Positions 34,627 to 64,000 of a stretch of 64,000 nt of DNA are shown here, in pieces. The notes beneath the pieces were generated by a model. That model had not been told where the DNA came from, did no database searches, and saw nothing but the letters and a program-made list of their open reading frames with translations. The DNA comes from a virus (taxonomy: Duplodnaviria > Caudoviricetes): the IMG/VR virus record IMGVR_UViG_3300037067_004891, positions 128,001 through 192,000 of that record; one strand, given 5' to 3'. How positions within the stretch are numbered: position 1 is the first letter of the stretch; each line of letters begins with the position of its first letter. The translations under genes were made by a program, and so were the position numbers.

Positions 34627-34845
34627 ATTTTGTTATATTCACCTCACCGATCTTATTGAATTTATCTTCCTATATACAGTTGTGTCAACCCTCATTTTTG
34701 TGTGTTCACTCACTCAATTGTTAATGCCCCACCACTTGCAGCATGTTGTGTCAACCCTCATTTTTGTGTGTTCACTCACCTATTTACAACTCTTAAATCA
34801 TATTTTTCTGTTGTGTCAACCCTCATTTTTGTGTGTTCACTCACC
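34623..34845 (-). CRISPR. CRISPR-like mini-array 2: 3 full 36-nt repeats, 1 degenerate repeat, 3 spacers (29, 30, 30 nt)
   Basis: GTTGTGTCAACCCTCATTTTTGTGTGTTCACTCACC at 34810-34845, 34745-34780 and 34679-34714 (last base T); degenerate copy ends at 34648. Confidence 0.88.
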
Positions 34846-35111
34846 ATACCCTTAATTAATTCATTAATAGTTAGATCATTAAGATGATATTTCGTTTCTA
34901 AAACTTGATAAATTTTATAATAATTATAAAATAAAACATATGTTTTCTTATCGTAACTAAAATAAACAACGTCATTTTTCTTTCCAACTAAAATATCAGA
35001 ATTATACTTAGAAGCAAACCACTCAGTATCTTTAATTATTTGCCATAAAAAATACTTAGGACTTCTCGCTTCTTGTATCTTTCGAATTACATCTAATATA
35101 TCTTCTTCCAT
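34776..35111 (-). CDS. Array-fused small protein, copy B (start revised to MEEDILDV)
   Basis: Paralog of 52598..52984; C-terminus MVSEHTKMRVDTT is encoded by the first repeat; TAACTTTG box at 35172-35179. Confidence 0.75.
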   Translation of the reverse strand: MEEDILDVIRKIQEARSPKYFLWQIIKDTEWFASKYNSDILVGKKNDVVYFSYDKKTYVLFYNYYKIYQVLETKYHLNDLTINELIKGMVSEHTKMRVDTTEKYDLRVVNR

Positions 35112-44189: not shown

Positions 44190-47100
44190 GTGAAGAATCT
44201 CAGATTTTACAATAAAGAGGGTTATCCTTACAACTTCCAATATAATGACGATACTGAAAAATGGGAAGGTAAAATGTTATTCGACCCAAATAGTAGCGAT
44301 TTATATAAAACAATAGGTATCTATTTATTTGAACATGTAGAACCGATCTCGTTTGCTGATTATTTCAATTTCAACAAATTTGAAATTTACAATGATAGTG
44401 GAATAATATTCAAGGGATCGACAAAACAAGGTTTAAATATCGAAAATATTCAAAAAACTAATAATTCATCAGCATTTAAAACAAAATGGATAAAGGGTAA
44501 AGGATTTCATCAGATATTTCCTGAAGGAACGGTTGTTAGATTCGTGTTAAGTGGCGCAAATTATACAGATTTCGCAGATGACTTATATTTTAATGTATTG
44601 GAAACCCGAAAAAATGAAATATTAGTTCAAACACAAACCACGAATGATATATTTGCAGCATTCACATACACATCTGGAAAAATATACAGTTGCGATGTTA
44701 TAAAATACCCAGATTATAATCAAGGATATGGTGCAATGTTTAGTTCAAAAATATATGTAGGTAAACAACTATCCGTAGTAAATTCAGATAAAAATTCAGG
44801 TGTAGTTGAAGTTAAAGATTATGAGGTCTTAAAAAGAAATATATATGATTTCGAATTATCAGGAACTACTAATGATAAATTAAATCTTGAAATTACATTA
44901 TTAACAGATAGAATTTTATTACACAATGGTGTTGTGAATATTATTGGAAACAAATTCATATTTAGTCAACCATTTGGTGATACTTTTAATATTGGACAAA
45001 ATATAATATTTGAAGATTATAATGGAAACCAATTATTAAACGGATATCAATATACAATCACATCAATATCGGATAACATCTCGGTCAAAACTGGAGTAAA
45101 TTTAGAATTCTTTGAATATTATGATGAAAACACAACGGACGAAACTGAATATTATATTAGAACAACATCAACACTCAATGTTCAGTTAGTAGCAAATGAT
45201 ATAATATACTTCACTGGTGCATCTTTAAATATCCAAAAGGATTTCAAAGTTTTATACACTTATCAAGAAGATGGTTATACATATATTCAACTCGAACAAC
45301 ATGTTCATGAAGAAAATGTGACAAACATGTCAATTGTAAAACGATTAAGATTTTATGAATATTTTACTTTAGATGCTTCTGGAATACCACTCACTCAAAC
45401 AATTGATGGCAATTGTTTTTTAACAACAAATATTTTAAACTATAAACAAGACATTATACCCGCAGCATCAGGTTATACTACTTATCATGAAACAATAAAT
45501 GCTTTTGTAAAAAATTTTAATAACGATTTAAATAAACTTGGTATCAATTCATATCTGTTAAATGATAAACTAATAATTGAAGGATTGTATGATTATACAT
45601 ATGCGCCATATTTCACAGTTACTCTGTATTTAGAAAATGATGGAGTAAATGTTGGAACAATTCCAAATCAAAATACATATTCATCTGCATCTGTTTCAGA
45701 TATACATTATATATTCACCGAAGAAAAAATATACAATGAAAAAATTTATTTATATGAAACAAATAAATTATCAAGTAATTATAACGAAGAAATAATATTT
45801 GATTTATATAATGATGTTTTAGATTACGGTTTTAATTTAACTTTAAACGATGTAGAATATTTCATTAATTACCAAGATAGTACTGGAACAACAAACAACA
45901 CACAAGAAACCATTAAAGACTTTGTTGAAAAATACTACACAGCATTGTATAACAAAGGAATAGAAATTTTTACTGGTACGACAGTGGATAACAAATTATA
46001 TATTCAAACATTATATCCAGATATTCAAATATTGAGTTTAAAAATTAAAGTAAACACATATTCTTCTTACAATATATTATATCAATCAGAAAACGAATTC
46101 AAAACAAATGGCATTATCATATCTGGTAATCAACTGGATATATCTATGATGGGTTCAACGAATTTATTTGATATTGGATTGTCAACTGGTATGATATTTT
46201 CAGTATCGGGTAGTTCATATAATGAAAACGAAAAAGAATATAACATATTAGGTTTAACTACTAATACAATACAATTGTCATATCAGGGTGCATTTTTTGA
46301 AGAAAATAATATTCTTTTAGATATTGATTCAAGAGAATATATTCGTAAGCCAAGACTATCATACAATAAAGATATTTATTATAGATTTTCGTGGATAACA
46401 AGCGATGAACATCTTATTGATGAATCTATATTTTTCTATGATATCTCTGGTGAACAACTTCAACCACCAAAAGATAATTCTGGAAACTATATTGAAAAAT
46501 TAAGATATATAGGACAAAAACCAATATGGGATTCAAAACAACAAAATATCATTAGATTAAATAAAGAACCAAATAATAAATTGGAATATATTTCAAACCC
46601 GAAATATCAACAAACAATATTTTCAGAATTAAACTTTTTATTACCTCAACTGGATTCTGATGATGATTTCAACTATCTACCAAAACCATTTGAAATTTTT
46701 ATTGGTTATAATACGTTAAACGAAGGTGTTAATTATAACATGATGAAAATAGAAAAGGTTGAAAGTGTTGTTTTTAGTGGCATAACGGGTGTTTCAGATA
46801 ATTTTTTTATTTTTAATACAGATGGAATAATTGAATTTAAATCAAACACTTTTGATAATTTTATAAATTTGGGATTTGAAATTGGACAACCAATACAAAT
46901 TAAAATGACCGATACTAACCCATATGATCAGTCATTATTCAAAAATTATGAAACATATACTATTATAGATATTTTAAAAAATAAAATAGTAGTTGATATT
47001 TCTAATATTAATGATTTCGTATATTTCAATTCGTCTGGTAAAACATTCAATTACTCAATTAATGTTCAACCAAAAGAAATTGGTCGTTTTTCTATTTATG

Positions 47101-48179
47101 GTGAAACTGAAATCGAAGATGAACGCTTTGATATAAATTTAAAAAACTTAGGTATCCGAATACACAAAGAAGAAGAAATGATTTTCAAAGATTCCGACTT
47201 AGAAGAAAATGGTATAGATTATTCTTTGTTAAATAGAAAACGAAAAGAAATGTTAATAATGTATCCACATATTTATAATTATATTGGTGCATATAAATCT
47301 CTTATGGGAGCTATTAATTTCTTTGGGTATAATGATTTGGAACTGTATGAATATTATAAAAATGTCAACTCCAGTTCTCCTTTTTATAAAAAATATATGA
47401 GAATATACATTCCTGATATATTTGATACCACAGTAGATGGATGGAATGAAGTCGATTTTATTAAAAATAAAGGAAATAGAAATAATTATGTCAAAAGTAA
47501 TTTATTCAATTTGACTTACAAAATAACTGATGAAGATGGTTACAATTTGAATTTATATTCATTAAAAGAAGTTCAAATAAAACTTCAAAAATTGAAATTA
47601 TGGTTAAGAGAAAACGTCATTCCACTTTCAACAAACATTATTGATATAACAGGCTCGGCTAAAATACCAAATACTAATTATTTAGTGCATGATACATCAA
47701 ACCAGATAAAAAAATTAAAAACTGAAAAAACAGGAATTGTTATAAATTTTAATCATATTACTACACTTAATTTCAGTACAAATTATTTATTTTCAATTTT
47801 TTTCTATACAGTTAGTGGGTTTATTCCAGATCATTTTGAATTGATAATAAAAACTTTCACCAAAAATGCAGAAGGAAAATTAATACCCGTTCAATATTTT
47901 AAAGTATTTAAAACAGACCTCGAACCATTTAATTTTAATATAGATAAAGATGTAGACCCATATATTTACATCGAAACATCATATTATGGTGATTATGGTG
48001 TTGGTTATCGTAATACTGAATTGTTTAATTTTGATGAACCAAAAAACTATTATTTAATCAATAATAATTTTAGATATAAATATTATCCAAGAATAAGTAC
48101 CAATGAAGGATACTATATTATAGATGATGATGGCAGTCTTTGGATTGTAGAAGAATATAGCAATGTTATAAATAGTTAA
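44190..48179 (+). CDS. Very large putative structural (tail/baseplate) protein
   Basis: 1329 aa, beta-rich, YIGAYKSLMGAINFFGY segment, TAATATATA upstream. Confidence 0.55.
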   Translation: MKNLRFYNKEGYPYNFQYNDDTEKWEGKMLFDPNSSDLYKTIGIYLFEHVEPISFADYFNFNKFEIYNDSGIIFKGSTKQGLNIENIQKTNNSSAFKTKWIKGKGFHQIFPEGTVVRFVLSGANYTDFADDLYFNVLETRKNEILVQTQTTNDIFAAFTYTSGKIYSCDVIKYPDYNQGYGAMFSSKIYVGKQLSVVNSDKNSGVVEVKDYEVLKRNIYDFELSGTTNDKLNLEITLLTDRILLHNGVVNIIGNKFIFSQPFGDTFNIGQNIIFEDYNGNQLLNGYQYTITSISDNISVKTGVNLEFFEYYDENTTDETEYYIRTTSTLNVQLVANDIIYFTGASLNIQKDFKVLYTYQEDGYTYIQLEQHVHEENVTNMSIVKRLRFYEYFTLDASGIPLTQTIDGNCFLTTNILNYKQDIIPAASGYTTYHETINAFVKNFNNDLNKLGINSYLLNDKLIIEGLYDYTYAPYFTVTLYLENDGVNVGTIPNQNTYSSASVSDIHYIFTEEKIYNEKIYLYETNKLSSNYNEEIIFDLYNDVLDYGFNLTLNDVEYFINYQDSTGTTNNTQETIKDFVEKYYTALYNKGIEIFTGTTVDNKLYIQTLYPDIQILSLKIKVNTYSSYNILYQSENEFKTNGIIISGNQLDISMMGSTNLFDIGLSTGMIFSVSGSSYNENEKEYNILGLTTNTIQLSYQGAFFEENNILLDIDSREYIRKPRLSYNKDIYYRFSWITSDEHLIDESIFFYDISGEQLQPPKDNSGNYIEKLRYIGQKPIWDSKQQNIIRLNKEPNNKLEYISNPKYQQTIFSELNFLLPQLDSDDDFNYLPKPFEIFIGYNTLNEGVNYNMMKIEKVESVVFSGITGVSDNFFIFNTDGIIEFKSNTFDNFINLGFEIGQPIQIKMTDTNPYDQSLFKNYETYTIIDILKNKIVVDISNINDFVYFNSSGKTFNYSINVQPKEIGRFSIYGETEIEDERFDINLKNLGIRIHKEEEMIFKDSDLEENGIDYSLLNRKRKEMLIMYPHIYNYIGAYKSLMGAINFFGYNDLELYEYYKNVNSSSPFYKKYMRIYIPDIFDTTVDGWNEVDFIKNKGNRNNYVKSNLFNLTYKITDEDGYNLNLYSLKEVQIKLQKLKLWLRENVIPLSTNIIDITGSAKIPNTNYLVHDTSNQIKKLKTEKTGIVINFNHITTLNFSTNYLFSIFFYTVSGFIPDHFELIIKTFTKNAEGKLIPVQYFKVFKTDLEPFNFNIDKDVDPYIYIETSYYGDYGVGYRNTELFNFDEPKNYYLINNNFRYKYYPRISTNEGYYIIDDDGSLWIVEEYSNVINS

Positions 48180-52597: not shown

Positions 52598-52984
52598 ATG
52601 GAAGAAGACATATTAGATATAATAAAAAAGATACAAGAAGCTCGTAATCCCAAATATTTTTTATGGCAAATAATTAAAGATACTGAGTGGTTTACTGCTA
52701 AGTATAATTCTAATATTTTAGTTGGAAAGAAAAATGATGTTGTTTATTTTAATTACGATAAGAAAAATCACACTTTATATTATGATTACAACAAAATATA
52801 CACAGTTTTAGAAACGAAATATCATCTTAACAGATTGAATGCTAATGAAATAATTGGTGGTATGGTGAGTGAACACACAAAAATGAGGGTTGACACAACC
52901 AAGGTGCAGGAGTACAGATATATAAGAATGGTGAGTGAACACACAAAAATGAGGGTTGACACAACTCATTTATATCAATTTTAA
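52598..52984 (+). CDS. Array-fused small protein, copy A
   Basis: 88 codons precede repeat 1; reads through repeat 1, spacer 1 and repeat 2 and stops in spacer 2. Confidence 0.75.
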   Translation: MEEDILDIIKKIQEARNPKYFLWQIIKDTEWFTAKYNSNILVGKKNDVVYFNYDKKNHTLYYDYNKIYTVLETKYHLNRLNANEIIGGMVSEHTKMRVDTTKVQEYRYIRMVSEHTKMRVDTTHLYQF

Positions 52985-53351
52985 TATCTTCCTTAGGTGA
53001 GTGAACACACAAAAATGAGGGTTGACACAACTATTCGCATTGCAATCGCCTTCTTCATGTTCGGTGAGTGAACACACAAAAATGAGGGTTGACACAACCA
53101 AGTATAAACCCGTTGTGCTTCATCATTAGGTGAGTGAACACACAAAAATGAGGGTTGACACAACTGGTGTATTGCGTTTCTCTATTATGTGGGCAGGTGA
53201 GTGAATATACAAAAATGAGGGTTGACACAACATTAGAGAGTTTATAAATGCGAAAAAAGGGGGTGAGTGAATATACAAAAATGAGGGTTGACACAACTGT
53301 TCTATGGTGGTTCAACAGACAACACATTGGTGAGTGAACACACAAAATGAG
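52864..53351 (+). CRISPR. CRISPR-like array 1: 7 full 36-nt repeats, 1 truncated repeat, 7 unique spacers (30,30,31,30,31,30,31 nt)
   Basis: GGTGAGTGAACACACAAAAATGAGGGTTGACACAAC at 52864, 52930, 52996, 53063, 53129; variant GAATATAC at 53196 and 53262; 5' part only at 53329. Confidence 0.95.
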
Positions 53352-53732
53352 TGAACTTTTAAAAATTAACAAAACAAATTATAATAAATTCAAAATGAAT
53401 TCGACTGATGAAAAAATGTTGGAATTGTGTTTTGCACAAATTAAATCTTATTTTAAAGATGAAAAAGATTTAGAATTGTATAAAAAATTAACTGACCCCC
53501 CCATTCTATTGGTGGTAGATTACGTAACGAATTAAATCTATGGCATGACAGTGTAATTGCAAAATGGTTTAAATCATTAGGTATATATCACGGTGATGAT
53601 ATGTCTGGAATTATATTAGTTTCTTATCATCGAAAGTTAAATGATATACCTATAAATTTGGAAGAACAAGTTAAACACTATAAAGATTGGTGGGCTAAAT
53701 CAGAAGAATACCGATATGGACAAAAAAACTAA
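53347..53732 (+). pseudogene. DUF6794-like gene frameshifted at a C7 tract (53496-53502)
   Basis: Shifted frame reads HSIGGRLRNELNLWHDS...LGIYHGDDMSGIILVSYHRKLN...QVKHYKDWW. Confidence 0.65.
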
Positions 53733-54051
53733 AAGATACGTAAAACTTCACGAATTAAACAAATCTGAAGAACGATTAGAAATCGAAAGAACTCATACAC
53801 TTCACATGGGTATTGTAGATGATGAAGGTGTGGAAGGAATCGTAGAAATTGATAAAAAAAATCCAGATCAAAACGATATAAATCGATGGAACTTCGTTGT
53901 CGAATGAATGGACAGAGGAATGACATTGTTTGTGGTTTCTGGGTTGATAATATCATGTTACCTCATATAAAAAATAAAACAAATTCTGAAACTTCACAAA
54001 ACTATTTGAAAAAAATAGCATATAAGATATAAATTAAAACATTTTATATCT

Positions 54052-54345
54052 ATGGATAATATTTCAGGAAATGTGAATTACACAGAGATGACAGATGAGT
54101 TTCAGAAAAGAAAAAATAAAGAAACTCCAAAAGAAAAAACAAGTTCAATCCAAAATTATAACAAAAAAGAGTTCACAAAAGTTTTAAAAGAATTAACAAC
54201 AAATTTTTATAAGGTATTAGAAAATAGTGAGAAACTTTATGAAATGAGAAGTTTAAAAGAATTAAACGATTTCAAAGTAACTGTCAAATCAGTCGAAAGA
54301 GATTTAAATAAAGTTCACGATATAAACGAAAAAAGTGGGGAATGA
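54052..54345 (+). CDS. Hypothetical protein
   Basis: 97-aa ORF ending at the terminator. Confidence 0.55.
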   Translation: MDNISGNVNYTEMTDEFQKRKNKETPKEKTSSIQNYNKKEFTKVLKELTTNFYKVLENSEKLYEMRSLKELNDFKVTVKSVERDLNKVHDINEKSGE

Positions 54346-54365
54346 CCATGACCCCCACTTTTTTT
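54330..54365. terminator. Bidirectional terminator between convergent genes
   Basis: AAAAAGTGGGG...CCCCACTTTTTTT. Confidence 0.7.
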
Positions 54366-54387
54366 ATTATACAATATCACTTATTAA

Positions 54388-54759
54388 TTATCGAAGAAGT
54401 GCTTGTAATTCTTCCTCAGACATATCTCTAAGTTTACCTTCTCTTTTTTCTGCAATTAAAGTAAGAATCTTTTGATTATGTGCTTTATCTTCAGCAGCAT
54501 TTCTAAGTTCTTCGGCCTCTTTATTCTTAGTAAGATATACATCTTTCAGAATATCGAAACGAAGCTGATTTTCAACATCAACAACCTTGGTATCTTCAAG
54601 GAACGACAATTCATCATCATCGCTCTTTTTCAACACCTTTTTAACTGCTTTTATAGCATTTGAAAGTTCAATTTGAGATAAATCCCAAAGTTGTTCCACT
54701 GATAAGTTTCCTTTACCAGTTAAAACTCTTAATCCTAATTTTGAAGCCTCTTTATACAT
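54388..54759 (-). CDS. Phage coiled-coil protein
   Basis: KGNLSVEQLWDL...LRFDILKDV...MSEEEL. Confidence 0.7.
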   Translation of the reverse strand: MYKEASKLGLRVLTGKGNLSVEQLWDLSQIELSNAIKAVKKVLKKSDDDELSFLEDTKVVDVENQLRFDILKDVYLTKNKEAEELRNAAEDKAHNQKILTLIAEKREGKLRDMSEEELQALLR

Positions 54760-54804
54760 ACGTTTTAATTTTTAATTATTATACTTAATTTTTAAAATTT
54801 TATT

Positions 54805-55368
54805 TCAATGATGTCTTCTTGAACTATTTTCACTAACAGATATCCATCTACAATTTTCAGGTGTATAATTTCCATCGGAATTAATTCTATCTATTGATAA
54901 TTTATCTTTAAATGGTGTGTTTTTTGGCTGTTTAAAATAACCATTACTAATTGACCAATCCCTAAATTTTGTGAAATCGTTTAACTATTCATTACAAACT
55001 ATAATACCTTTACCACCATAATTATGATATTTGAGTGATTTTGGATTATAACATCTTTGTTTAATAGTATTCCAAACAAAAAATAAAGATTTATATTCAT
55101 TATATCCATTGGGTGTATTACCATGTGTTTTTGAATTTTCACCAATTCTTTCACCATTCACCTCTTTCATATAACAACCACAAGACACACTTCTATTATT
55201 CCTTAATGAATATAATAATACATTTGAGATATTACCACATTCACATATACATATGAATACTCTACAAAGTTTTCCACAAGGTTGTCTATGAGATGGTGCT
55301 TCTTTTAATATAGACCATCTTCCAAATTTTTGACCTGAAATTATCAAGATTGGTTTAGCCATTACCAA
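54805..55368 (-). pseudogene. HNH-type endonuclease with in-frame TAG at 54985-54987
   Basis: GQKFGRW, C.CECG, SCGC, RCYNP...YGGKGI.VCNE*LNDF..F.DW...SIDRINSDGNYTPENCRW. Confidence 0.8.
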
Positions 55369-57520
55369 ATTTAACTTTTATTGTTCGTTTAAATGAACCA
55401 GAAAGTTTTAAAATTACACACTCAGAAACAGTAGCATTAAATCCAACACCTGATAATTGTTTTTCAGTAGGTTCAATCATGGTAGTGTTACCTAATACTT
55501 CAAGAACCTTACGATGTTTAGCCAGTTCAGGTATCAAGTTTTCATTATGAAAACTACGAATATTCACAGGGCATTTACAACCGTCAAGCATGATCAAATA
55601 ATGTTTATTACCTACATTATTATCACCCCAATGATTAGGACTTAGACACACCAAATTAACTTTATGAAATTCATTTGTTTGTAAACCATAAAGTTCTTTA
55701 GATGATGCAATTTCAGGTAGTAAATGCATAATGCTAAATTCCCCATTATTCAAAGTAACTTCAGCTACTTGTACATTGCCTGATACGGGTTTATTATATT
55801 CATAAGAATAATTTTCGCCCCCGAATTCAATTTCAGCTTTGAATCCTTTAGAACCCCTGCTGGCATATTGGTTAATCCACAATTTGTAAACACCATCTTT
55901 CATTCTTTTGATATCAGTCCAAGCGATATTCTCAACAATATTTTTATTACTAAAATTATTAGGTTGAGTTATATCAATATCCAACTGTCCAGACATAGAA
56001 GTTCTATGATTTCCTCTGTCTTTTCTGTAATCAGACGAATAATAAATATGAGTACCATTTGGTTCTTGTGCATGAGCATCTAAATCGGAATTATCTGTTG
56101 GGTCATTTTCTGCCCACATAATAGAGAAACGCAATACACCATCAACCTTACCACCTTTAGCTTCAACAGCATCTTTAATCATCGATTTACCAGCCAAGTT
56201 ACCATTGAATGTCCAACTGTAATTGTTATTCCATTTGAATATAGGTTTGCTTTCTTTATTGTTAGCTGTTGTTAAAGAAACAAGATTACCTTCATATTTG
56301 TTAGACAAATACGCTTCAACTGAAGTACACGAAGGAAGAACATCCGACATAAACTTTTCAATAGTTACTTCTTCCACATTATCAAATTCACTTCCTTTGT
56401 GACGAGTAGAAGTCGATTTAACATTGTCGAATATAGAAACAGTTTTTAATTTACCGTCTCCAACATTGATGTGTTTAATTTCCGAAACTTTAATATCATC
56501 AATTGTGGCAAATCTTCTATTAAAAGATTCTTCATAACCATTTTCTTCAACGAATTTTTTAGCTTCTTCAATTTGTTTCTTGGTAATCGGAGCAACAGTT
56601 TTCATATAATTAACTGGGTCAACTCTTTTATTCCAAGACTGACATGCTTTGTTTAAATCTTCCCCCTCTGCCAATTCGGTGCATAAAGTACCAATTAATT
56701 CATTTTTGAACTTAGCAAATGGAAGTTTATAACTGTTAACCCAACACCAATTATCCCTTTTATCCTCGGATAATTTATCATATTGTTCCTTTAATGGTAT
56801 GATTTGATGTAATTTATACAAATGAGTTTGTCCATCCAGCAGTGAACCTTGGTTAATAAGGTCTTTCACCAGATTGAGTGTATCAAGCGGTATCACTTGC
56901 ATAGCCTTTTGAAAAACATTTTTGGCATCTCGATAATTAGCCATTATTTTTTCAACTGAATCATCACCCATATCTACAAATACCCTTGGTAGATTAAGAT
57001 GTAAATGATTAAATGTTCTAATTTCTTCAGGTTTAACTATGAAAGAATCATCTGAATTTTTATACAATTCAGCTTCATCTTTTGTGTATTGCTTTACGTT
57101 TTTGTCAATACCCAATCTGAAAATTTCATTTGTTTTAGAACATTTCTCATAAGGTAAAGAATTTAGCTCGCTGAAAGTTTCAAAGAAAACACCCGAAACC
57201 GTAGCCGATTTTAGTTTAGAATCTACCACTTTAGCTACTGCACTGTATTCTTCATTTGCATCAACATCAAACATCGTAACAACATTGAGATTTTCATCAA
57301 TGGCAACGATATTACCATATCTACGAATAAAGTTATTACAGTGATTACAGTTATGTGAAGAACTGTCTGGACTTCTGAATATGGGATTGTGTTCTTTTGG
57401 AAAACTTTTAATATACAAATCCCACACTTCTTGACCAGTCAACGAACTACGAAATAACTTACCCGTTTCACACATCTTGTTGAATTGGGCTTGAATTAGT
57501 TTGTTAAACTCAATCATCAC
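55355..57520 (-). CDS. Large hypothetical protein (721 aa) carrying the protospacer of spacer 5
   Basis: HNCNHC, LRFSIMW...DLDAH..EP, LDID, VENIAW, SPNHW. Confidence 0.8.
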   Translation of the reverse strand: MMIEFNKLIQAQFNKMCETGKLFRSSLTGQEVWDLYIKSFPKEHNPIFRSPDSSSHNCNHCNNFIRRYGNIVAIDENLNVVTMFDVDANEEYSAVAKVVDSKLKSATVSGVFFETFSELNSLPYEKCSKTNEIFRLGIDKNVKQYTKDEAELYKNSDDSFIVKPEEIRTFNHLHLNLPRVFVDMGDDSVEKIMANYRDAKNVFQKAMQVIPLDTLNLVKDLINQGSLLDGQTHLYKLHQIIPLKEQYDKLSEDKRDNWCWVNSYKLPFAKFKNELIGTLCTELAEGEDLNKACQSWNKRVDPVNYMKTVAPITKKQIEEAKKFVEENGYEESFNRRFATIDDIKVSEIKHINVGDGKLKTVSIFDNVKSTSTRHKGSEFDNVEEVTIEKFMSDVLPSCTSVEAYLSNKYEGNLVSLTTANNKESKPIFKWNNNYSWTFNGNLAGKSMIKDAVEAKGGKVDGVLRFSIMWAENDPTDNSDLDAHAQEPNGTHIYYSSDYRKDRGNHRTSMSGQLDIDITQPNNFSNKNIVENIAWTDIKRMKDGVYKLWINQYASRGSKGFKAEIEFGGENYSYEYNKPVSGNVQVAEVTLNNGEFSIMHLLPEIASSKELYGLQTNEFHKVNLVCLSPNHWGDNNVGNKHYLIMLDGCKCPVNIRSFHNENLIPELAKHRKVLEVLGNTTMIEPTEKQLSGVGFNATVSECVILKLSGSFKRTIKVKFGNG
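56111..56141 (-). other. Protospacer identical to array-1 spacer 5
   Basis: Plus strand TGCCCACATAATAGAGAAACGCAATACACCA is the exact reverse complement of 53165-53195. Confidence 0.97.
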
Positions 57521-57668
57521 TTTTTATTTATTAAATTATTACTGTCCAGTACTACTACAATTTCATAACTGGAATTATTAATATACAAATGTATAATAAA
57601 AAATAATATACACATGATAAGTATCTTTATTTTTTTTTATATATACCTAAAAAATATTAATAAAAATA

Positions 57669-60597: not shown

Positions 60598-62006
60598 CCA
60601 ACTGCTAACAAAAATATAATAAAATCTACAAATATTTAATAAAATTAAAACAAAACGTTTTAATTTTAATATAAATTTAATGTTAAAAGCGATAAAAATA
60701 AGGTTGTACCCTAATAAAAATCAAGAAGTTTATATTAATAAACTTCTTGGTTGTTACCGCTTTATGTATAATAAATGCTTAGAGTTAAAGAAAAATAAAT
60801 ATACTGAAGAAAATATTTCTTTAGGTTTAAAAGATTTAGGAAAACATTTTCATCAAAATTTAACTAAAAATAATGATTATATTTTTCTTAAAGAACACAA
60901 TACCAAGGTTTTAAAACAAGCAATTATTAATCTTTTAGATTCTTACAAAAACTTTTTCATAAATGGAACTGGTTTTCCTAAATTTAAATCAAAGAAAGAC
61001 AACAAACATTCTTGTAGGTTTCCAGCAGAAAGTGTAAGTAAAAAGAATAATTATTTATCTGGGAAATTAACTTTAACCAGTCAAATTAAAGATATAAAAT
61101 TCAAATGTTCAGATAATTATAAAAATTATTTAGATAAATATAAAAATAATATTCGGTCAGCTACTCTTACTAAAACTGCTTCTGGAAATTATTTTTTAAG
61201 CGTTTTAGTTGATGGAAATATTGAAAAACAACTACCCAAACCTATAAATGAAATTGTTGGGATAGATTTGGGAATAAAGGACTTCGTGATTAGCTCCGAA
61301 GGAGCTGTTTACGAAAACCTTAAAACCCAAAGAGCCAACGAGAAGCAGCTCATTAAATTGCAAAAACAACTGTCTAAAAAAGTTATAGGAAGTAGAAACA
61401 GAAACAAAGCAAGAAAAAAATTAGCTAAAAAATATGATAAAATAAATAACAAGAAAGAAAAATATTTACATTTTGTTGCAAACCAATTACTTAATGATAA
61501 TCAAATTATAGTGTTGGAAGATTTAAATGTAAAAGGTATGTTGAAAAATCACTGTCTATCAAAATCAATACAAGAACTGTCACTAAACAGGTTTAAAAAT
61601 ATTTTAAGTTATAAATCTGCCTGGTATGATAGAAATTTAATTGAAGTTGATCGGTGGTTTCCTTCATCAAAGCTCTGTAACTGTTGTGGTTATAAAAAGA
61701 AAGACTTGAAATTAAATGATAGAGTGTGGGTCTGTCCCAACTGTGGGGTCGTTCACGACCGTGATTTTAACGCTGCTATAAATATAAGAGAAGAAGGGAA
61801 AAGAATTTTTAACAGTAAAATAACTGACTTTCAATCAAAAAAAGATTTTCAAGTAGGCAACCGTTTTGCCGAATTTACGCTTGTGGACTCCCCAACTATG
61901 GATGACCCAATCAGAAATGGTTTGCTAAAAAGTAGTGAGAGTGTGAAACAAGAAGAAATATTTTTAACAAATTTGTAATTTTTGTTAGATTTTTTTGAAC
62001 GGTTAA
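60598..62006 (+). mobile_element. TnpB-only IS200/IS605-type element (1409 bp)
   Basis: Boundaries defined by the restored host frame; GGTTAA at both junctions (60592-60597 and 62001-62006). Confidence 0.85.
60680..61978 (+). CDS. tnpB: RNA-guided endonuclease TnpB, intact
   Basis: KAIKIRLYP, GIDLGIK, LEDLNVKGM, FPSSKLCNCC...CPNC...DRDFNAAINI. Confidence 0.95.
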   Translation: MLKAIKIRLYPNKNQEVYINKLLGCYRFMYNKCLELKKNKYTEENISLGLKDLGKHFHQNLTKNNDYIFLKEHNTKVLKQAIINLLDSYKNFFINGTGFPKFKSKKDNKHSCRFPAESVSKKNNYLSGKLTLTSQIKDIKFKCSDNYKNYLDKYKNNIRSATLTKTASGNYFLSVLVDGNIEKQLPKPINEIVGIDLGIKDFVISSEGAVYENLKTQRANEKQLIKLQKQLSKKVIGSRNRNKARKKLAKKYDKINNKKEKYLHFVANQLLNDNQIIVLEDLNVKGMLKNHCLSKSIQELSLNRFKNILSYKSAWYDRNLIEVDRWFPSSKLCNCCGYKKKDLKLNDRVWVCPNCGVVHDRDFNAAINIREEGKRIFNSKITDFQSKKDFQVGNRFAEFTLVDSPTMDDPIRNGLLKSSESVKQEEIFLTNL

Positions 62007-62599: not shown

Positions 62600-62744
62600 A
62601 TGGATGATACTTTTGATATAATAAAAAAGATACAGGAAGCCAGAAGCCCGAAATATTTTTTATGGCAAATAATTAAAGATATTGAGTGGGTTGATTCTAA
62701 GTATATTTCTAAATATTTATACAAAAAATGAGGGTTGACACAAC
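62600..62744 (+). pseudogene. Third, internally deleted copy of the small-protein/repeat cassette
   Basis: MDDTFDIIKKIQEARSPKYFLWQIIKDIEW... (stop at 62731) joined to the 3' part of the repeat, ACAAAAAATGAGGGTTGACACAAC (62721-62744). Confidence 0.85.
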
Positions 62745-63009
62745 TATTGGATTTTATTCTCCATACTTATTATAAACCAGAAACTGGTGAATTAATCGTA
62801 CCAGAAAAATGGAAGAATTTTTCGGTAATAGACCCAAACAAATTACCTGCTGCCACACCAAGAGAACTTCTAAAAAAGAAACTGGAACAATTTCTTACAA
62901 GAGATGAATGGAATCAATTGGATATTTATTAAAAAATATAATTAAATAATATTAAATTAATATTTGTCTAATTCAAAAATTATGTTTTACTTTACACAAA
63001 AATAATGAT

Positions 63010-64000
63010 ATGATAGTAACATCATCAATGAAAATAAAAATAATACCAGTGGATGTAATATCCAAAAAGTGGATATTTGATATTTTTAATGTATCTTATA
63101 AGATTCAGAATCGGGCTTATGATATATCACGGATGTTACATCAATATCCAGTAATAATGTTACCTGTTACACCACCCAAATCACAAGTATATAATTTAAC
63201 TACTCAGGAATTTCCTAAAGTTATTACTACTTATCTGAGAGATTGGGTATATCAAGCAGAAAACAATTATAAAAGTGATGTTAAAGCTGGTTTATTATCA
63301 GGTAAAAGAAGTCCAAGACTGTATAAGAAATATGGTGCTACACGTTTTCAATTTTTGAAAAAATCTAATCCAAAATTAATAAAAGAAAATGGTGATTTTT
63401 TTATTCTTATTAACAGTAGAACAAATATCAAATTTAAAATACTATTCGACAAAAAAACAGGACATCTTAAAACTATGTTAAATAGATTTTTGGATTTAGA
63501 AAATAAAAAATACAATCTTAACTCAACTTTTTATATTAAAAAAACCAATAGAAACGAACTGATGTTAATCATATCCTATGAACAAGACATCCAAGGTTAT
63601 GTTGGCATAAATAATAGAGTGATGGGTATTGATATGGGTGTGAGAAGATTTATTTCTTTAAGAATAAATGACATACCAAGATATCAGAAGTCTATTCATA
63701 GTGAGAAATTAGTTCAACAGAAGTATGGTATTGCTATGAAAAATAAAAGGGTACAGGAATCTTCTGTATTAGCTAAATCAGGTCATGGTAGAACAAGAAA
63801 AATGCAGGTTTATAATAAAGTAAAAGATTCTGAAACATCATTTACTAATAATGTACTGGATAAATTATCAAAAGAAGTAATTGAATCTGCTGCAAAACGA
63901 AAAGTTCAACAGATAAACATGGAACGTCTTGATAAGAATTCTATGAAAGAACAAAATTCTTATCTTGGAAGATATTGGAGTGTTATGACTTTGATGAATC
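63010..64000 (+). CDS. Cas12f-like (type V-F / TnpB-derived) RuvC effector, runs off the window end (not in ORF track)
   Basis: Open for 330 codons: GLLSGKRSPRLYK, LIISYE, RuvC-I VMGIDMGV (D208), SGHGRTRK, LSKEVIESA, RuvC-II INMERL (E305), YLGRYWS. Confidence 0.8.
   Translation, partial: MIVTSSMKIKIIPVDVISKKWIFDIFNVSYKIQNRAYDISRMLHQYPVIMLPVTPPKSQVYNLTTQEFPKVITTYLRDWVYQAENNYKSDVKAGLLSGKRSPRLYKKYGATRFQFLKKSNPKLIKENGDFFILINSRTNIKFKILFDKKTGHLKTMLNRFLDLENKKYNLNSTFYIKKTNRNELMLIISYEQDIQGYVGINNRVMGIDMGVRRFISLRINDIPRYQKSIHSEKLVQQKYGIAMKNKRVQESSVLAKSGHGRTRKMQVYNKVKDSETSFTNNVLDKLSKEVIESAAKRKVQQINMERLDKNSMKEQNSYLGRYWSVMTLMN

Follow-up and report, generated by a model that had tools for sequence, protein, structure and literature searches.

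Viruses can carry CRISPR arrays. Huge phages carry compact arrays without acquisition genes that target other phages (PMC7162821, PMC11656645), and the virus-borne mini-arrays of the portogloboviruses SPV1 and SPV2 and of huge phages are short, lack acquisition genes and hold many spacers that match related viruses, their accessory genes among the targets (PMC11656645, PMC7162821). Here we describe an array of this general kind in a 64,000-nucleotide (nt) stretch of megaphage DNA, hereafter the window, which comprises bases 128001–192000 of a linear IMG/VR virus record of 421,673 bp (G000; 59% complete according to CheckV). One spacer of the array, spacer 5, matches without a mismatch a gene for a 721-amino-acid (aa) protein of the same phage. 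Like the known mini-arrays, the arrays of this phage are short, have no acquisition genes and include matches to accessory genes of relatives. They differ in that 6–11 of them are scattered over a genome (G000 and its relative G001), each continuing in frame from the end of a protein gene, and in that a host array with the same repeat was not found among 185,579 species genomes scanned. Moreover, the carriers described so far are spared by their own arrays, whereas here about one spacer in 11 matches the carrier perfectly, with the flanking motif intact.

Self-targeting spacers also occur in bacterial arrays, where they account for well under 1% of spacers and are usually tolerated through lost or inhibited effectors, degraded protospacer-adjacent motifs (PAMs) or mismatches. 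The phage spacers resemble them in matching the genome of their own carrier perfectly and in lacking a recognisable cognate effector, but they sit in a lytic-type megaphage instead of a cell, keep an intact PAM-like flank and are far more frequent. Systems of this kind are known; what is new is that the arrays are fused in frame to a multi-copy gene, that they are scattered and that intact self-matches are so frequent. Our preferred reading, held tentatively, is that the self-match is a silent side-effect of conflict and gene exchange among related phages, rather than suicide or a control switch. The elements that carry the argument are the following, in window coordinates:

52598–52984, plus strand: small conserved gene; its body (52598–52863) encodes 88 aa and the open reading frame (ORF) continues in frame into the first repeat
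52864–53347, plus strand: CRISPR array with seven full 36-nt repeats (52864–53297), seven spacers of 30–31 nt and a truncated eighth repeat
53165–53195, plus strand: spacer 5, self-matching, 31/31 to 56111–56141
56111–56141, minus strand: protospacer of spacer 5, within the 721-aa gene, sense relative to the plus-strand reading of the array
56106–56110, minus strand: PAM-like flank G-AAAA directly 3' of the protospacer on the sense strand of the gene (TTTTC on the plus strand)
55355–57520, minus strand: target gene, 721 aa, phage family phrog_1735 (E = 9.8e-218)

The initial annotation had reported this match from the letters of the DNA, and its coordinates, codons and flanks are confirmed. 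Spacer 5 recurs once in the window, at 56111–56141 on the minus strand and with no mismatch; the match extends to 32/32 when the first base of the next repeat is included, and a second match appeared in none of 100 dinucleotide-preserving shuffles. The protospacer codons read D-G-V-L-R-F-S-I-M-W-A in the frame counted from the ORF start at 57520. On the sense strand of the gene the site is flanked by aaggttga on the 5' side and gaaaat on the 3' side, and on the plus strand it is preceded by TTTTC. Spacer 5 is a genuine CRISPR spacer, captured from DNA of the phage family, and when the array is read on the plus strand it has the same sense as the mRNA of its target. A count of ten spacers is reached only by adding the three of a second array (34648–34845) to the seven of this one.

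A chimeric assembly, raised in the initial annotation as a threat to the match, would require array and target to stem from two co-existing strains merged into one contig, and we regard this as highly improbable. In its favour, the record is a metagenome assembly, and the Logan contigs with which we compared it do not bridge the array, because the repeat exceeds the assembly word size. These contigs come from runs X1 (groundwater) and X2 (landfill), which belong to different studies and one of which may be the source sample. In both runs, however, they tile 53268–56300 without a single difference, and the depth at the distal flank of the array equals that at the target (25.5 and 26.3 in X1; 4.4 and 4.27 in X2). 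A variant of the target is reported in neither run. Furthermore, G000 holds three independent self-matches, and others recur in the complete genome G001 and in the fragment G003.

The relatives were retrieved through the small gene linked to the arrays and comprise G001 (639,979 bp, terminal repeats, 100% complete), G002 (675,678 bp, 98% complete) and the fragments G003 and G004, which with G000 make five records. The relatives of G000 are megaphages of 640–676 kb (genomes of about 0.64 Mb). Huge phages of more than 634 kb were predicted by Al-Shayeb et al. to replicate in Bacteroidetes (PMC7162821), and the size of the G000 family and its low G+C content (about 26% in G000) would fit that group and its predicted hosts. 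The standard genetic code fits G000, and stop-codon recoding was rejected on this ground. Its gene content includes an NAD-dependent DNA ligase, a peptide deformylase, a DNA methylase, HNH endonucleases and many PHROG families. Among GenBank phages, neither a near nor a distant match to the locus or to the spacers of the array was found. The scan of species genomes with the repeat gave six single chance matches, in Acidobacteriota and Anaerolineales, and zero arrays, and a metagenome scan with the small gene returned just three short contigs.

At least six scattered arrays with one 36-nt repeat or close variants of it are present in G000, two of them in the window. They have the generic form of CRISPR arrays, with 36-nt repeats, unique spacers of 29–32 nt and a period of 66–67 nt. 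Gene-by-gene annotation of the two window cassettes showed no neighbouring cas gene, although orphan arrays form a recognised class. All six directly follow a paralog of one ORF of about 266 nt and are in frame with it, and the last 12 codons of this conserved phage gene of about 100 aa constitute the first repeat, which encodes the peptide M-VSEHTKMRVDTT. The array of spacer 5 sits within a run of plus-strand genes, and its truncated eighth repeat (about 53329–53347) shares bases with the start codon of the ORF that follows. Such cassettes are also present in the four related records, two of them 98–100% complete megaphages, with eleven scattered arrays in G001 and one each in G002, G003 and G004. 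The window contains one further cassette and the remnant of another:

34648–35111, minus strand: second cassette, a small-gene paralog (34846–35111) with three repeats and three spacers (array 34648–34845)
62601–62744, plus strand: truncated small-gene paralog, a cassette remnant, joined to the 3' part of a repeat

The remnant region (62601–62930, plus strand) consists of the first 38 or so codons of the small gene, the 3' part of the repeat and then an unrelated frame, and is a decayed cassette upstream of a Cas12f-like gene described below.

Our results indicate that the small ORF is a real coding gene. The similarity among the six loci starts exactly at its ATG, a 12-nt insertion in one paralog is in frame, and differences among the copies number 327 at third codon positions, against 242 and 166 at the other two. 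An AlphaFold2 model of the protein has a predicted local distance difference test score of 90.5, and in this predicted structure the residues encoded by the repeat are part of the last helix (residues 79–94). The small protein has 146 homologs at E < 1e-3. Its structural neighbours in the Atlas are unnamed phage clusters only, and a fold search found zero solved relatives (Foldseek best E = 0.13; VIA best Z = 3.8). The same C-terminal peptide is kept in distant homologs and in some paralogs without an array, and for this reason the repeat is taken as the coding end of a pre-existing gene. As a nucleic acid, the repeat does not fold stably in either orientation (minimum free energy −3.1 kcal/mol, z = 0.85), the short stem at its end is not preserved in repeat variants, and in Rfam it matches neither the CRISPR-DR nor the tracrRNA (trans-activating CRISPR RNA) family.

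This relation between gene and repeat recalls the ectopic 'neo-CRISPR' arrays that Nivala et al. reportedly described in 2018, which are said to form by Cas1-Cas2 integration at pseudo leader-repeat sites. In those arrays too, the array is seeded in an ordinary gene and the sequence of that gene is duplicated as the repeat. One may ask whether the phage arrays are by-products or decoys, in that the end of the small gene mimics a leader-repeat junction at which the Cas1-Cas2 of the host inserts spacers ectopically. Such spacers would be drawn from any DNA in the infected cell, that of the phage included, their RNAs would never be loaded and self-matches would be neutral; many copies of the site might even soak up integrations that would otherwise immunise the host. 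We consider this account unlikely, though it deserves a place among the candidates. It is consistent with a repeat that codes for part of a folded protein, and with array-less paralogs and homologs that keep the peptide, which implies that the gene end came first and that conservation of the repeat needs no RNA function. It also agrees with the fact that no cas gene was seen beside either cassette of the window, that no tracrRNA pairs with the repeat and that avoidance of self-matches is not evident. On the other hand, only about 13% of the spacers of the complete G001 resemble G001, yet most DNA in an infected cell should be that of the phage itself; cassettes are maintained at 7–12 copies across diverged relatives; and some spacers match accessory genes of relatives that are missing here, once alongside a spacer of the Cas12f-like array, which looks directed. 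In contrast to 'neo-CRISPR' arrays, the site used here is a conserved, multi-copy one that has persisted among diverged phages, and the arrays have an ordered polarity and a PAM.

The spacers themselves point to the phage family. When the approximately 34 spacers of G000 were compared with the entire record, three matched it perfectly (about 1 in 11). Besides spacer 5, these are the first spacer of array 34648–34845 (34781–34809), which matches a glycosyltransferase gene outside the window at 29/29 (G000 256664–256692), and the first spacer of the array at G000 403883–404183, which perfectly matches a 785-aa ORF at G000 338395–338423. In addition, the terminal spacer of spacer 5's own array (53298–53328) matches a GT2 gene at 27/31 (G000 370514–370544). 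The earlier remark that the other nine spacers are unmatched is thus correct within the window but not in the genome, where 34781–34809 and 53298–53328 find their matches. G001 has one perfect self-match among about 31 spacers and another with one mismatch, and G003 has one self-match with one mismatch.

At least eight spacers match other family members with at most two mismatches, including a gene largely missing from G000, and about one spacer in five is traceable to the gene pool of the phage family, including genes of relatives that G000 lacks. One 478-aa gene of G004 is matched at two sites about 100 nt apart, at 29/30 by a spacer of the fourth array (G000 207742–208177) and at 27/30 by a spacer of the separate array that belongs to the Cas12f-like gene; G000 retains just a 44-residue remnant of this gene. 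These paired matches follow the pattern described for interviral-conflict arrays (PMC11656645, PMC7162821).

The protospacers share a flank. An N-AAA(A) sequence lies 3' of the match at all four self-match sites of G000. In 12 independent spacer-protospacer pairs from the family genomes, relatives included, AAA at positions +2 to +4 was present in 5/12 protospacers against a background of 0.061 (p = 4.7e-4) and AAAA in 4/12 (p = 1.7e-4); the 5' flank of the 12 showed no motif. The T-rich flank that the initial annotation had noticed in the opposite orientation is hence a family-wide motif, since N-AAA-A is the reverse complement of TTTTN and is enriched. The same annotation had proposed, as one of several options, that the phage tolerates the match through a PAM mismatch. 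This explanation fails, because the site of spacer 5 and the other self-matches carry the consensus flank.

Several perfect self-matches with an intact flank motif could also be expected if a binding-only effector tuned the phage's own genes during infection, namely the 721-aa gene and two glycosyltransferase genes. Non-cutting effectors of phages and plasmids provide a precedent, and repression by phage arrays has been proposed (PMC7162821). However, the self-matches are not conserved, as related genomes and orthologous arrays hold different spacers; the targets lie inside coding regions with no preferred position, and the nucleases found in the family keep intact catalytic residues. Self-regulation is accordingly a poor prospect in our estimation, ranking low among the explanations considered.

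Arrays of this family are polarised. Five of the eight spacers with at most one mismatch occupy position 1, beside the small gene, all four matches with four or more mismatches are terminal, and a truncated or degenerate repeat stands at the array end far from the small gene. Given that perfect repeats and the best-matching spacers adjoin the gene, and that the degenerate repeat and the mismatched spacers are distal, the small-gene end is the leader, or acquisition, end. It follows that the N-AAA-A motif is on the leader-distal side of the spacers, which among known systems is the geometry of type II-A. Type I, type V and type II-C systems and the type VI-B system of F. columnare have the opposite arrangement, with the PAM end turned towards the leader (PMC8092290, PMC12080349). 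Transcription that enters the arrays from the small gene would place the motif 3' of the protospacer, as in type II systems (II-A-like).

Cas9 was not found in the 421 kb of G000, a record 59% complete, or in G002, and Cas1 is absent from all five related records. G001 does encode a Cas9 of 1138 aa (TIGR01865, E = 2.5e-88), with intact RuvC and HNH residues and with Neisseria Cas9s (Neisseria meningitidis) as its best solved relatives. It forms part of a type II-C-like module without cas1 or cas2 that consists of array, cas9 and tracrRNA (L120, G001:283321–289566). This system resembles the scattered arrays in its 36-nt repeat, 30-nt spacers, repeat similarity of 21/36 and occurrence in the same phage family. 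It differs in that its array, of 11 repeats with a different repeat sequence, is separate and adjoins cas9 directly upstream, and in that its ten spacers have zero matches in the phage family. The tracrRNA lies directly downstream of cas9, with anti-repeat, hairpins and terminator; its duplex with its own repeat reaches −30 kcal/mol (shuffled sequences −8.3 ± 2.6), whereas with the scattered repeats it reaches −8 to −13 kcal/mol, at the shuffled level. Because the G001 Cas9 has an array of its own, and because its tracrRNA fails to pair with the scattered repeat, it was rejected as partner of the scattered arrays. Ungapped, gapped, seed and duplex scans of G000, G001 and G002 for an anti-repeat to the scattered repeat outside the arrays found none, and returned only the terminal repeats of the arrays themselves and the cassette remnant. 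Where G001 has cas9, the syntenic site of G000 (421499–421673, the end of the contig) is occupied by the beginning of a P-loop ATPase gene and that of G002 by a gene for a 590-aa protein of membrane type; the site is a variable hotspot, possibly for defence or counter-defence cargo.

The other candidate nuclease lies near the right end of the window, about 10 kb from the array of spacer 5:

63010–64281, plus strand (the window ends at 64000): Cas12f/TnpB-like gene, 423 aa, PF07282 (E = 1.6e-15), intact RuvC motifs

This gene is a candidate partner of the scattered arrays. In a type V reading, the arrays would be read on the opposite strand and this Cas12-like nuclease would use a 5' TTTTN PAM, with the phage's own DNA protected otherwise, for example by modification, compartment or timing. 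TTT(T)N does stand directly 5' of the protospacer on the other strand, the RuvC motifs are intact in a gene that is 93% identical in its G002 ortholog, and the cassette remnant lies just upstream of it. The repeat of the Cas12f array is alike to the scattered repeat at about 25 of 36 positions (z = 4.5), and both repeats differ in the same manner between G000 and G002 at one position. Yet the polarity of the arrays makes the motif leader-distal, unlike type V geometry, and weakens this part of the earlier interpretation, which would fit only if the acquisition end were misassigned. Moreover, the Cas12f-like gene owns a separate array, G001 has 11 scattered arrays and lacks an ortholog of the gene, no anti-repeat to the scattered repeat was found near it, and the similarity of the repeats is no higher than that of the scattered repeat to the Cas9 repeat, in either orientation. 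We therefore regard a type V partnership as doubtful.

The Cas12f-like locus is in itself a complete-looking miniature type V system, with a gene that includes a zinc ribbon, a possible tracrRNA region of about 200 nt and an array of six 36-nt repeats and spacers of about 30 nt, with a different repeat (window coordinates 64499–64865; G000 192499–192865; L030:2499–2866). Its G002 ortholog, with its own array, is at about 513.2–515.0 kb. Arrays with unrelated repeats were also seen at 177.8 kb and 185.0 kb of G001 and at 130.4 kb of G002; among these, one ends in a Cas12a-like stem (…TCCTACTATTGTAGGT) and one adjoins a TnpB-like gene. The G002 array, of 8 repeats, has a repeat that resembles the G001 Cas9 repeat, though G002 is without Cas9. 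It appears that class 2 CRISPR modules are exchanged among these megaphages. A classical IS605-type TnpB with HTH, OrfB and TNB domains lies at 60680–61978 (plus strand), and with eight TNB domain matches in G000 and nine in G001, TnpB elements are abundant in these phages.

The strand of the matches raises another possibility, in which CRISPR RNAs (crRNAs) transcribed from the small gene guide an RNA-cutting protein supplied by the host, such as Cas13b. A sense spacer such as spacer 5 cannot pair with the mRNA and would be a harmless passenger, as in type VI-B arrays that borrow DNA-based acquisition. The type VI-B system of F. columnare, which acquires in trans via a type II-C machine, is a close parallel, as it is cas1-less and its spacers are PAM-associated, with abundant non-mRNA-targeting spacers and intact PAMs at self-targeting spacers (PMC8092290). 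Each of the four perfect self-matches, of which G000 has three and G001 one, is sense, as is the 27/31 match, and the antisense spacers have at least one mismatch to self or match relatives only. The array also lies among genes of its own strand, and its geometry of a 36-nt repeat and 30-nt spacers is compatible with such a system. The scattered repeat may also resemble Cas13b repeats.

The strand bias does not bear much weight, however. Four sense matches out of four correspond to a p of only about 0.06 and were noticed post hoc, and for two antisense spacers a match with one mismatch exists in the record that carries them. When relatives are included, the 12 best protospacers comprise eight sense and four antisense, and the bias dissolves as evidence for RNA targeting, although the perfect self-matches alone stay all-sense. 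The repeat has no hairpin, and the PAM end is leader-distal here and leader-facing in F. columnare. PADLOC gave no match for seven of the eight G000 ORFs of at least 950 aa (a 2297-aa ORF was left out), and Cas13 was not found among these seven. Two RxxxxH motifs are present in just two of the large ORFs, one for a ribonucleotide reductase and one for a conserved core protein in which the motifs appear unlike those of HEPN domains. ORFs of 1329 aa and 1124 aa were likewise rejected as effectors, being core proteins conserved at 77–82% without HEPN-like motifs; the former (44190–48179, plus strand), about 5 kb upstream of the array, has no Pfam, PHROG or PADLOC match and is 81–82% conserved in G001 and G002. 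RNA targeting by a host protein thus seems to us fairly improbable.

The history of the target gene helps to explain how spacer 5 came to match its carrier. The 721-aa protein has no Pfam match and no PDB sequence match. Two further features of this region are:

55675–57575, no strand assigned: recombination tract of about 1.9 kb, 96–100% identical to G002
54985–55368, minus strand: HNH homing-type endonuclease gene, phrog_374 (E = 7e-29)

G000 and G002 are 100% identical over 151 nt around the protospacer, and in a sliding comparison of the tract interior over more than 400 nt, whereas the neighbouring DNA is only 74–87% identical; G001 shows only 55–66% identity at the protospacer. The tract marks a recent recombination in the most variable part of the 721-aa gene. 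The HNH gene lies between a 123-aa gene and the 721-aa gene and is missing from G002 and from related strains in runs X3 and X4, in which contigs skip 54663–55427. The alignment of raised identity to G002 starts right beside the HNH gene, and the 96–100% stretch about 0.3 kb further in. It is plausible that homing with co-conversion of the flank caused the tract. For spacer 5 only, the tract agrees with a suggestion of the initial annotation, namely later acquisition of the gene from a relative at which the spacer was aimed. Gene exchange cannot be the whole story, because the other two perfect self-targets differ in the available relatives.

Taken together, the reading that we favour, tentatively and as somewhat short of probable, is that the scattered, cas-less arrays hold a memory directed against kin, and that the self-match arose by sampling of near-identical DNA and by gene exchange and is tolerated with the cognate effector not acting. 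The arrays would serve as memory in conflicts between co-infecting related megaphages, which is the known role of virus-borne arrays. Since cas1 is absent, new spacers are probably added by the adaptation machine of the host. A self-match may then arise by two routes: a spacer directed against kin and an allele derived from kin may end up in one genome, or a spacer may be captured from near-identical DNA of kin or from the phage's own DNA. Spacer 5 matches its carrier because its target lies in a tract nearly identical to that of an otherwise diverged relative, and tolerance of the match would stem from the lack of a functional partner for this guide on this DNA and not from the absence of a PAM. 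Spacers derived from the family occur in both orientations, which also speaks for this reading.

Several points weigh against a kin-directed memory. About 80% of the spacers are without a known source. The use of host Cas proteins is an assumption, as the scan found no bacterial genome with this repeat, and with G000 only 59% complete, an effector could sit in the missing part. If the arrays do work against kin, a perfect and PAM-flanked self-match should be costly with an effector present, and perfect self-matches nevertheless make up 3/34 in G000 and 1 of about 31 in G001, which encodes Cas9. Recombination, finally, accounts for spacer 5 alone, the other two perfect self-targets not being identical in the available relatives. 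There is some room, which we judge to be small, for a new kind of system owned by the phages themselves, in which the coding end of the multi-copy gene is a dedicated integration site, the scattered arrays work with a so far unrecognised effector or act as a sink for the spacer acquisition of the host, and self-matches are intended or neutral. Within such a system, self-matches could serve kin recognition, decoy or self-regulation instead of being accidents.

Virus-borne arrays are thought to strike rivals and spare their carrier, and the megaphage described here keeps several perfect self-matches flanked by the motif. With one of them in a recently exchanged segment near a mobile endonuclease gene, self-targeting coincides here, in a concrete case, with warfare among kin and with the flow of genes between them. 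Scattered arrays without adjacent cas genes can turn over fast in phages that lack acquisition genes. If an effector exists, this family would reveal how a carrier escapes self-killing; if there is none, it would be a natural example of arrays seeded within a protein gene.

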